From assembly GCF_030013595.1 (NCBI RefSeq), contig NZ_CP122768.1: 64,000 nt of DNA; one strand, 5' to 3'. Within the stretch, counting starts at the first letter, position 1; each line of letters begins with the position of its first letter. A program made the position numbers. Shown one piece after another: positions 15,001-18,000 of the stretch. This stretch comes from Escherichia coli (GTDB lineage: Bacteria; Pseudomonadota; Gammaproteobacteria; Enterobacterales; Enterobacteriaceae).

Positions 15001-18000
15001 ACGTGATCGATACGCACCGGGTATTTGTCTTTAGCCCTGCACAGGTGAAAATAACCCTCCCCTTCCGTGATCCGCCTCCAGATATCTCCCAGTTGCCTGG
15101 ATATCCGATAAGATTTGTTGTGACGTTGCCCATCCAGGTAGCCGATAAAATGAATATGAAGTCCCTTGTTTGACGTATATTCCATTACCCAGTAATATCC
15201 CGCCAGCATCGTTTGGGTTTCACTAAGTAAGCGGTGCATTTCAATACACATACTGTGCCTACAGGAATGACCAAAACTGGGCGTGTCTTTCCTGTAGGCA
15301 AAATCAATTCTGAAAGGTAACAGTTTAGAAAAACGTTGAAACAGACCTTCCATGTGTTCATTCACATCTTTCAGAATCATGAAGTCCATTTCGTAATTGG
15401 GATTAGCATTATACATTTTATAGTCCTTACTTTATAAAAGTTACAGGAAGGTGGAATTACATAAATACTGAGAGTACAGAAACGCCGTACCGCGGCATTA
15501 ATAAACGAGGTAACCAGCAGCACAGACAACCTGATAAAACTGTTTCGTATTACCTCATTACTCCAAAGAGGTAATATTTCAGAGTACAGTAAGACTCACT
15601 TAAACTGAGGACCAGTACGAATTACAATGGTAAAAACACACCTCATAGAATTGAGTTTAAGGAAGTACCATTCAATCACTTACAGGAAGTAATCTGACAT
15701 TCACAAAAGCCAGTATCGGGTAGCCACAGGCAACACCGCTATTAATACTTCTGTACCATTAAGTAAAAACAGCGACCCAGCTTGAGGCCTCTACAGATAT
15801 TTAACTTCACCATAAAAATGATGGTATACAGACCATACCCCACACACCATAAGAATATTATTTCATACAGGAAAGATTATATTTTTTCATACCTATAAAC
15901 TGTAACAGAGCCATAACATACTCTAATAGTGTTCCGGTACGTAACCAGTGTTAAGTGCGTACAAGACAACATAACAGATCACATAACTTCCACTAATAAT
16001 ACTAATTAACCTAAATTATTTATTGAACACGAAAACAATGAAGGCCCCACCTCACCTCAGACTAAAGCCGACAATATCCTGAGTAACACTCTATCCAATA
16101 GTAAATAGTGGTTACACCAGTTATATTTACTGACTGACCTGTACCAGAGTTTTCTAATACAACGCTGACATGGTAAAGACATTAGTCTCCTCCGCAAGTA
16201 GCAGAGGAGACTATATGTACTCAACGATTAAGTCGTTCAGAGGTCAAAGTTAGGTGCGACACACAACGTTTTTCCCTCAATAACCGGTACAACTCTGTTT
16301 TGTTCATACAGTAAATCCAGTAACCAGTTGATTTTATCCTTTTTCCGGAAACGGTTCGGACCACGCTGTAAAATGTCATTTTTTTTCATACAGAGGATCC
16401 CCTTCTCAATACAATAGCTTTTTATCCAGTTGAAAAGTTCAAGCTCCTCTGGAATGAGTCGCACAGGTACGGTCAGGGCAGAGTTGTCAAAAGTTAACGG
16501 ATTAGACAACCGCACATACTCATTACCGTACCATATTGCTAATTCTCTCGCCATTTCTGCAGTGTAAGGGGAAATCTCCCCCTCTTCACCGCTCGAATGG
16601 TAAATAAGTCCTGCCAGTCTTGCCATATACTCTGCATTTTTAGCAGCATATTCCCGGCAATGTCTTAAAGGCCCCAATCCCCCCAGCTTCGATTCCACAT
16701 CATTGTAATAATCCGTCCAGATTCTGGCAGCCTGAGGAGAAAAGTGAAGGCAACGTCGTTCACCACTCATCGCCAGACTTTCATCAATAAGCTCATTGAT
16801 CCTCTCTTCAAACAAATCCTGATACTGTGATGAATAATTATCTCCGGTTATTATCCTTGTCCCCTGCGTTGATGTTGGTTGACACATCAAAAACCTTGCA
16901 TGATGTCCTGACGTTTTCACAATTTCTTTTTTTCGCGTACAAAAACCTTTGTGGTAAACATCAGGCTGAATCATCACCGATATCGTCAGTCTTGGCTCCT
17001 TCAAATTAATTCCGGGAGATGATTTCCTGTCGATGAAAAGAGAACCTCCATCCCACAAAGTGTTAATAATTCCCAGTTTACTCATGGCCCGGCTGTCAAA
17101 AATTACCCCCCTTCACTGGATACAAGAGCAAAAGAGCGATTGCTATCGGAGTAATATTTTAACATTCCCTCTATCGTTGTCTCATTAAAAATTGTTCGAC
17201 GTATCTGCGGCGGAACAGGAGGTTTATTCAGATGCGTTTCAAGCTCTGATTCTGTTGCCTTGTAATCTTTACCGGCACGAATCTCTTTATGAAATTTTGA
17301 TTCCAGCGCTTTTTGTTTTTGCTCCCATATTTCCTTTTCTGTACTGTAATTCTCAACCAGTTTCGCGTATTCATCCGCCAGGGCTTCATCCCTGAGATAA
17401 AATGCTTTCATAAACACTTTATCCACGGTCGTTTTCCTTTCACCGGAATCAGCCAGAATCAGAGAGTAAAGATTAACAGGCCCATGTAAATTTCCAGGTC
17501 TGCACACGTCAATCTGATTCTGACAGGCAATTGAGATCGCTGTTAATGCGGATGTTGCCACCATAGCCAAAGGTGCCTGTGTATTTTTTTGAGTTTCAAT
17601 TATTGCATTTCTCACCAGCGGTGGTAGTGCATATATCGGATAAGGATTTTCTGGTGCAAGTAAGCACATAAAAGCCTCTCTTTTCATTAATGGGTTAGTA
17701 AAATAGCAGCAAATCCCGCTACAATAGCGAAAATAGCTGCTATTCAGACCTGATGCTCTGAGAAATACAGAGCATTTGTAGATCTGATGTTTAATAAACC
17801 GATAAGGTTAATTCAGTGAAGACTGTATTATTCACCACGAAATATCATTCATATTTCTCATTCTTAATACCTCCGGAAATTATTTCACTAATACCTTTCC
17901 CCCGGTCTTTTCCCTTTCTCGAGAACCATAGTGTAAATATTAACGGCCCCACGTAAATTTCCGGGACTGCATACGTCAACCTGATTCTGACAGGCAATTG

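Follow-up and report, generated by a model that had tools for sequence, protein, structure and literature searches.

The 820-bp unannotated, gene-free stretch at positions 15417-16236 of a 64,000-nucleotide Escherichia coli sequence (contig NZ_CP122768.1 of assembly GCF_030013595.1; this whole sequence is called the window) is a composite intergenic region built of several parts rather than one element, and one of these parts—a 32-bp AT-rich sequence designated here the Gp2 box—is linked to the neighbouring gene gp2 family-wide and in a fixed orientation. The gap is bounded by the ATG of gp2 (the Gp2-like gene at 14853-15416, minus strand) and the stop codon of a yfjI-like gene (16237 onward, minus strand) and, because the island genes here all lie on the minus strand, it is located upstream of gp2 and downstream of yfjI. 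The reading favoured here, to which a probability of roughly 0.55 may be assigned, is that the Gp2 box serves as the promoter/operator of gp2 and also as the recognition or nick site of the encoded HUH protein, the rest of the gap being leader or spacer. A nick site or origin is proposed because a nuclease whose catalytic residues are conserved should require a particular DNA target and the box is the only conserved non-coding companion of gp2.

The anatomy of the gap was established by aligning eleven E. coli variants that share 78-100% identity (Table 1). The proximal 335 nt next to gp2 can be aligned throughout, with indels of 1, 8 and 13 nt, large indels are abundant among the variants in the middle of the gap, and a block around 15986-16018, corresponding to the box, is invariant in all eleven. 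In the variants with a different upstream gene (E2348/69 and YD786) the homology ends 0-22 nt beyond the box (16018-16040), and it ends likewise in those with a different yfjI allele (1916D18 and E. albertii). Since variants having another upstream gene or allele lose the similarity there, the segment 16019-16236 is part of the yfjI module, and the gp2 module starts at the invariant block, the box being the recombination boundary of the module. The terminator-like hairpin past the yfjI-like stop codon is conserved only in variants with yfjI upstream; the E. albertii-type variant possesses, instead, a canonical terminator, GCTCCCGCCGTTAGCGGGAGCTTTT, about 60 nt before the box. The remaining about 570 bp are a long 5' leader or spacer, weakly constrained and with no independent function that could be demonstrated.

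On the gene-sense strand the box of the window reads AATTTAGGTTAATTAGTATTAT TAGTG GAAGT and comprises an imperfect palindrome (consensus AATTAA-GG-TTAATT), a −10-like TATTAT and the conserved downstream motif GRAGT. When the gap was compared by blastn with distant loci, fetched via Gp2 homologues of 37-65% identity, the box was its only part matching the Citrobacter-like and Erwinia loci; it also precedes gp2 in Yersinia, Erwinia, Limnobaculum and metagenomes, where the homologues share 37-58% identity. Over the whole range of homologues it is always found upstream and in the sense orientation, 121-1162 nt from the gp2 ATG, the distance being about 120-180 nt in the Erwinia- and Yersinia-like class, 268 nt in the Citrobacter-like class, 362 nt in one metagenome lineage, 584-805 nt in the window's lineage and 925-1162 nt in a sister lineage whose Gp2 is about 63% identical. 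With a sequence-only profile the box is single-copy in the window (39.8 bits, E = 2e-11), none is detected in K-12 CP4-57, and in Salmonella a second paralogue, 30% identical, is preceded by a half box.

Metagenome and viral contigs were scanned for the 18-mer AAGGTTAATTARTATTAT, yielding 129 matches at 127 loci, 42 of which contain a Gp2-like gene by tblastn. Flanks of the family are present on 44 of the 129 matches, and gp2 lies downstream on the same strand in all 34 that have at least 1400 nt of downstream sequence; among the 85 matches lacking such flanks it lies downstream in three. One of these three (locus L075) is a genuine box whose GRAGT stands at a variant spacing; the remaining non-family matches, surrounded by unrelated flanks, represent the random occurrences to be expected of an AT-rich 18-mer. 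Three IMG/VR contigs of 4-5 kb (L029, L030 and L034) proved to be Microviridae, encoding a capsid and an HUH replication protein, with the 18-mer in an intergenic region; these copies were judged to be due to chance, in view of their opposite orientation and unrelated flanks.

Concerning the protein, the first-pass annotation was right in placing the gap next to a gene of the Gp2 type: the gene, ECs_1304 in O157:H7 Sakai, belongs to Pfam REP_ORF2-G2P and its product exhibits the HUH and YxxK motifs together with the HUH-nuclease fold. In 24 homologues of 36-65% identity the residues H87 and H89 of the HUH motif (present as HIH), Y157 and K160 of the YxxK motif (SYLAK) and R181 are invariant, and G-R-P-R of the C-terminal RGRPR, the core of an AT-hook, is nearly so. 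Next to gp2 there is always a gene of the AlpA family, on the downstream side in the distant loci and on the upstream side in E. coli. The fate of the neighbouring gene iee suggests independent selection on gp2, because in many related islands iee is truncated or frameshifted and gp2 with its upstream gap survives intact.

In the mechanism proposed here, the box controls the gp2 unit in cis. The TATTAT would be the −10 element of the gp2 promoter, and the invariant 16 bp upstream of it (AATTAAGGTTAATTAG, an imperfect palindrome) would constitute a protein-binding operator. The binder would most likely be the Gp2-like HUH protein itself, acting via the nuclease domain and the AT-hook-like RGRPR tail, and the same site would be nicked by the HUH-YxxK nuclease, leading to rolling-circle replication or transfer of the excised island. 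As far as the predicted promoter activity is concerned, gp2 needs a promoter of its own, because the upstream gene terminates before the box and the distant loci have a divergently oriented gene on that side. The intergenic region of two Yersinia loci contains no sigma-70-like site on the sense strand other than the box (TTGATG-16-TATTAT and CTGACT-16-TATTAT, a match of 9/12), and the conserved palindrome lies within the promoter spacer, a position that would be typical of an operator. Gp2 binding and nicking at the box are likewise predicted, the box being a credible recognition or nick site.

The first-pass annotation had offered, as one candidate, a replication origin with iterons, and this suggestion survives in a reduced form: the HUH and YxxK motifs, the HUH fold and the box shared across genera speak in its favour, but the site in question measures 32 rather than 820 bp, and the repeats are weak and dispersed. 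In the window they amount to two 12-nt units after the box and to dispersed 8-mers with irregular spacing, and at least three regularly spaced direct repeats of 12-22 bp, such as define an iteron-type origin, were not found there. The 12-nt repeats are kept in other yfjI-linked variants and, existing in two copies only, provide weak evidence. Only in the sister lineage is the box immediately followed by a regular array, TGTAA occurring at +13, 25, 38, 51, 64, 77 and 103, i.e. by seven units with mostly 12-13-nt spacing that look iteron-like.

Part of the above evidence would be compatible with a purely regulatory site. According to this alternative, which seems possible but clearly less probable than the double role, the box is only the promoter/operator of a gp2-iee or gp2-alpA unit without any function as nick site or origin; it would be bound by the AlpA-like or helix-turn-helix (HTH) protein of the island, or by H-NS/Hha, and the Gp2-like protein would act elsewhere or not as a nuclease. 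The acceptable −35 at 16 nt from TATTAT in the two Yersinia loci agrees with it, and so does the palindrome occupying the promoter spacer in the manner of operators of spacer-binding regulators. Against it, the −35 position is not conserved, and A-11 of the −10 is replaced in one homologue (TGTTAT). The constant presence of an AlpA-family neighbour supplies a candidate binder; moreover, the sister lineage contains, between box and gp2, a sense-strand gene of the Hha family (NF008191, E = 3e-29), positioned as the first gene of an operon would be. The regulatory alternative leaves aside, however, that the conserved HUH catalytic residues imply a specific DNA substrate and that no other conserved non-coding sequence accompanies gp2.

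Several observations weigh against the double role of the box. Nicking, origin activity and Gp2 binding at the box are predictions; the most divergent homologues (C. braakii and Rouxiella) exhibit only degenerate box-like sequences, and E. coli K-12 yfjJ has neither the box nor the long gap. No −35 can be recognised at the box in the window's own variant, which tells equally against a purely regulatory site, and the same holds for the Cappable-seq data of strain EDL933, covering 8 conditions (PMC10469882, supplementary file 7): among the start sites listed there, none is located at the box or in the gap, this being weak evidence of absence. The related Gp2-type protein of 347 aa on the Acinetobacter lwoffii plasmid pALWEK1.14 (4760 bp; L159) is encoded beside the plasmid's own Rep_3 initiator, so that the family need not be a replication initiator, a relaxase or another role being possible; this arrangement hints that some Gp2 family members are relaxase-like or accessory nucleases instead. 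Finally, the word TTCCTGTA is strongly over-represented in the spacer, and therefore to deny the spacer any function of its own may be too strong.

Among the EDL933 start sites listed in the same supplementary file, a weak sense one is located 15 nt within gp2 (2 of the 8 conditions), and an internal sense start of the yfjI-like gene, at window position ~16517 (minus strand; EDL933 1,063,268) and 280 nt before the stop codon, is above noise in 8/8 conditions; the latter could feed transcription toward the terminator and the box.

It is instructive to compare the box with established systems. Well-known double-strand origins of rolling-circle replication are the 'nic' and 'bind' loci of pMV158, the origin upstream of rep in pC194/pUB110 and the 30-bp origin recognised by the gene A protein of phiX174. 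As a putative nick site, the Gp2 box is similar to these in being a short AT-rich site in cis, upstream of an HUH-YxxK gene, with a small inverted repeat and short direct repeats; it differs in its sequence, unrelated beyond a generic AT-rich resemblance, in its distance of up to 1.1 kb from the gene, and in its location within a chromosomally integrated 86-kb island that encodes also a PrimPol-helicase (IEE) and YfjI (DUF3987). In the Ff filamentous phages the intergenic region upstream of gene II contains the packaging signal and the minus- and plus-strand origins, and the gene II protein belongs to a Pfam family different from that of the Gp2-like protein. The resemblance concerns the several hundred non-coding base pairs directly upstream of an initiator-type gene, the T-rich gene-sense strand and the RefSeq name 'inovirus-type Gp2' given to the neighbouring gene; unlike in Ff, there are no phage structural genes, no phage match and no conserved hairpin set, only the 32-bp box being conserved.

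A third comparison is that with the origin of transfer (oriT) and HUH relaxase of integrative mobilisable elements, the common features being a small HUH nuclease encoded in an integrative island beside int and alpA-like genes and a related Gp2-type gene on the small Acinetobacter plasmid having its own Rep_3; the Gp2 island, however, lacks a relaxase family signature and a coupling protein. The genes yfjJ and yagK of the K-12 cryptic prophages (YagK/YfjJ) belong to the same broad family (a weak PF11726 match, PF23343), and yfjJ shares the neighbourhood type int, alpA, yfjI, yfjJ, but the yfjI-yfjJ gap in K-12 is 152 bp long and has no box. Likenesses of the box to the nick site of f1 gene II and to the nonanucleotide of circoviruses and geminiviruses were not used as evidence because the matching bases are not the conserved ones. 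The box would represent an undescribed cis site of a rolling-circle-type protein, a site of a known kind.

A more far-reaching proposal, which has to be regarded as rather improbable, is that the box, the HUH Gp2-like protein, the IEE PrimPol-helicase and YfjI together make up an undescribed rolling-circle replication or mobilisation module of the SpLE1-type and wider int-alpA-gp2 islands. The box would be its nick site or origin, and the long T-rich leader, once displaced as a single strand, would allow the PrimPol to prime synthesis of the complementary strand. If this were true, the native job of IEE would be the replication of the island, and the excision of insertion sequences (IS) a side effect.

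With regard to the gap as a whole, both its coordinates and the lack of any open reading frame (ORF) of at least 60 codons in any frame were given exactly in the first-pass annotation; the longest ORFs are of 55 aa (16057-16224, minus strand, TTG start), 50 aa (15377-15529, overlapping the gp2 start) and 38 aa. The plus strand of the gap is composed of 37.2% A, 25.5% T, 21.7% C and 15.6% G, compared with about 25% of each in the whole window, and displays an AT skew of +0.14 to +0.26 and a GC skew of −0.05 to −0.28; it is A-rich and G-poor as had been described, but with that share T is not sparse. In the spacer the sense strand has T fractions of 0.38-0.41 and C fractions of 0.15-0.16.

The repeated words are real and beyond chance. 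TACAGGAAG does recur, but the three occurrences reported at first were a slight overstatement, as there are two exact copies (at 15442 and 15681), with one-mismatch copies at 15866 and 15585; AGAGTACAG is present twice, as reported, in exact copies at 15471 and 15581. The shared 8-mer core TACAGGAA (that is, TTCCTGTA on the gene-sense strand) occurs in three exact copies in the gap versus 0.05 expected, and in five within 15250-15900, i.e. with the first 160 nt of gp2 added, neither count being matched by any of 1000 dinucleotide shuffles; this 8-mer was picked after inspection of the data, the excess being nevertheless large. No tandem array was found in the gap by Tandem Repeats Finder. Copy 3 of the 8-mer, for which most variants read TTCCTGTG, lies where other lineages have their anti-Shine-Dalgarno arm. 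The pentamer CTGTA ranks first or nearly so among the enriched 5-mers of both the window's lineage and the sister lineage, the spacers of which are otherwise unrelated, and this enrichment may reflect either binding sites or duplicated pieces of an ancestral anti-Shine-Dalgarno segment (CTTCCT...). The 8-mer recurring in the leader is also carried by a 10-bp inverted repeat, CCTACAGGAA(20 nt)TTCCTGTAGG, at 15257-15300 within the gp2 coding region (codons YRK and HSCR), which is kept within the window's lineage and absent in the 63% lineage.

The spacer evolves in a near-neutral way: its proximal 335 nt are 81-92% identical to the window, while gp2 of those strains is 84-95% identical at its third codon positions, so that there is no sign of strong constraint. 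The window's spacer does not resemble those of other Gp2 lineages and has no DNA match to phages or foreign plasmids; the phage database likewise gave no DNA match and, at the protein level, only two weak Acinetobacter matches. A long structured non-coding RNA, another of the initial candidates, finds no support. Scanning 14000-18000 against Rfam (E ≤ 1) revealed no match in the gap, the single hit being a chance hairpin outside it, and RNAalifold applied to 13 variants detected compensatory pairs in 0 of 58 predicted pairs on the plus strand and 0 of 67 on the minus strand, with a covariation term near zero, the power of this test being limited by a divergence of about 10-15%. The third-codon-like divergence, the many 1-nt indels and the dissimilarity of spacers across lineages point in the same direction. 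Folded as a single sequence, the minus strand is no better than its shuffles (z = −0.4), and the plus strand has z = −2.6 (20 shuffles) without comparative support. An antitermination-style leader was also considered and dropped, since the leader terminators at 15850-15821 and 15789-15774 are not conserved among the variants. The known small RNA Esr41 of OI-43 maps elsewhere in the island (z1181/z1182), so that it is not this region, and the supplements of the RNase E crosslinking, ligation and sequencing of hybrids (CLASH) study (PMC5286369) contain nothing at these Sakai coordinates.

It should be pointed out that the A-rich strand is probably transcribed in the SpLE1 variant, from a constitutive antisense promoter inside gp2. 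Among the EDL933 start sites listed in the Cappable-seq file (PMC10469882), an antisense start at 1,064,580(−) appears in 8/8 conditions, and it maps to window position 15205 on the plus strand. A functional long antisense or non-coding RNA starting there—controlling gp2 as a counter-transcript, as known for plasmid rep genes, or having another role—is nevertheless unlikely to be the explanation of the gap. Its start is backed by a near-consensus promoter, the transcript must cross the gp2 start codon before entering the gap, no intrinsic terminator was found on the plus strand in 15200-16500, and that strand folds better than its shuffles, as given above; yet only the SpLE1 variant has the consensus −35, the others having TCTGGT or TTTGGT, the −10 is fixed by the GYYW codons, and neither compensatory changes nor an Rfam family accompany a spacer that evolves about neutrally and with indels. 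Moreover, an A-rich, unstructured transcript with more C than G would be a typical Rho substrate and may therefore end early. The antisense start is accordingly viewed as a local feature and not as the reason for the gap, because its consensus −35 is peculiar to that variant.

The last of the initial candidates, a highly decayed gene, finds no support in this lineage, and descent of the spacer from one or more ruined genes is the least likely of the explanations considered here. The idea draws on the sister lineage, in which 4 loci have the hha-like gene intact and about 20 have it in fragments, and on the variation of spacer length from about 120 to 1160 nt among lineages. A tblastn search with the sister hha-like ORF, however, gave no hit in either the window or its variants, no translated search against all proteins having been made; there is no DNA similarity between the spacers of the lineages and no phage or foreign plasmid match; and no gene is called under the gap in the records listed from 1585 spacer-bearing genomes, the annotation of the neighbouring yfjI overlapping the end of the match in a few of them. 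Indels of 1, 8 and 13 nt break every reading frame of the spacer, and the long unannotated gap before gp2 is a constant trait, measuring 690-1374 bp in the 11 E. coli variants. As for the sister lineage itself, leaders combining the TGTAA array with the hha-like gene were seen in L098 (upstream of 7578), as well as in L065, L138 and related metagenome loci.

Immediately before gp2, the block 15417-15439 is nearly invariant, with 21 of its 23 columns identical in 13 variants. In the distant lineages the last 50 nt before the ATG form a hairpin that buries the Shine-Dalgarno sequence (z from −1.4 to −4.5 in 9 of 10), the upstream complementary arm differing in sequence between lineages; in the window's lineage this hairpin is weak (z from −0.3 to +0.7). 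About 10 nt upstream of the anti-Shine-Dalgarno arm, the short leaders of the distant loci L016, L022, L026 and L065 have the sequence AAAAATTAC. Several Gp2 lineages share this motif, which may serve as a binding site or as a −10-like element close to the gene and has no recognisable form in the window.

Table 1. Features in and around the gap upstream of gp2 (window positions)
Feature	Position	Strand	Remarks
Antisense promoter inside gp2	15170-15205	plus	TTGACG-17-TAATAT, start 15205; outside the gap, fires toward/into it
Shine-Dalgarno TAAGGA of gp2	15424-15429	minus	from sequence
Spacer / long 5' leader of gp2	15430-15964	minus	lineage-specific; middle indel-rich
TTCCTGTA copy 3	15442-15449	minus	−33 from ATG
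TTCCTGTA copy 2	15681-15688	minus	−272 from ATG; kept in 12 of 13 lineage variants
TTCCTGTA copy 1	15866-15873	minus	specific to the SpLE1 variant
Two 12-nt direct repeats (AGTTATGTGATC, TGTTATGTTGTC)	15965-15988	minus	directly after the box; read from sequence
Gp2 box, 32 bp, AT-rich	15986-16017	minus	AATTWRGGTTAATTARTATTAT, then GRAGT 5-8 nt downstream
3' tail of the yfjI-like module	16019-16182	minus	travels with yfjI, not gp2
Terminator-like hairpin	16183-16213	minus	13-bp stem, 5-nt loop, weak T tail; 24 nt past the yfjI-like stop

A stretch of E. coli O26:H11 str. 11368 matches the window with 99.8% identity, and the same genes are found in O157:H7 Sakai within the prophage-like element SpLE1 (OI-43/48 of EDL933), where the gap is the ECs1303/ECs1304 intergenic region (Sakai 1,377,415-1,378,234, 820 bp). 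In the Sakai order, the integrase (ECs_1299) comes first, followed by an HTH 'regulatory protein' (ECs_1302), the YfjI family protein (DUF3987; ECs_1303) directly before the gap, the 187-aa 'inovirus-type Gp2 protein' (ECs_1304) directly after it and then IEE, the IS-excision enhancer with PrimPol and superfamily 2 (SF2) helicase parts (ECs_1305). The latter corresponds to the 794-aa PrimPol and SF2-helicase gene at window positions 12338-14722 (minus strand), the RefSeq name of which is now 'TOTE conflict system archaeo-eukaryotic primase domain-containing protein', a 'TOTE conflict system' being a term with no occurrence in the literature searched. That literature contained no paper on ECs1304 or its upstream intergenic region. 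By megablast the gap is present in 1562 of 5426 complete E. coli genomes (~29%). An 85-bp match to the spacer beside a truncated terminase gene in strain PEC41 was dismissed as a rearrangement scrap next to IS elements.

The locus adjoins iee in the tellurite/urease island of enterohaemorrhagic E. coli (EHEC) and in the related islands of those ~29% of genomes, and a defined 32-bp site tied to an HUH protein that is catalytically intact, as judged by its motifs, offers a cheap experimental handle on the replication or mobilisation of the island after excision and on the control of gp2 and iee. As the 820-bp 'desert' is mostly spacer, a hunt for a non-coding RNA can be spared. The gain is incremental rather than conceptual, being of interest mainly for researchers on EHEC islands and IEE.

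Concerning the upstream neighbour, the yfjI-like gene of this strain (16237-17687, minus strand) is probably a pseudogene, because a 1-nt deletion at ~17106, relative to O26 11368, splits it into ORFs of 282 and 194 aa. Just upstream of it, at 17703-17743 (minus strand), there is a near-perfect hairpin with a 19-bp stem, AUAGCAGCUAUUUUCGCUA ... UAGCGGGAUUUGCUGCUAU, which turned up as a chance match to a microRNA family in Rfam and could be an operator or a terminator.

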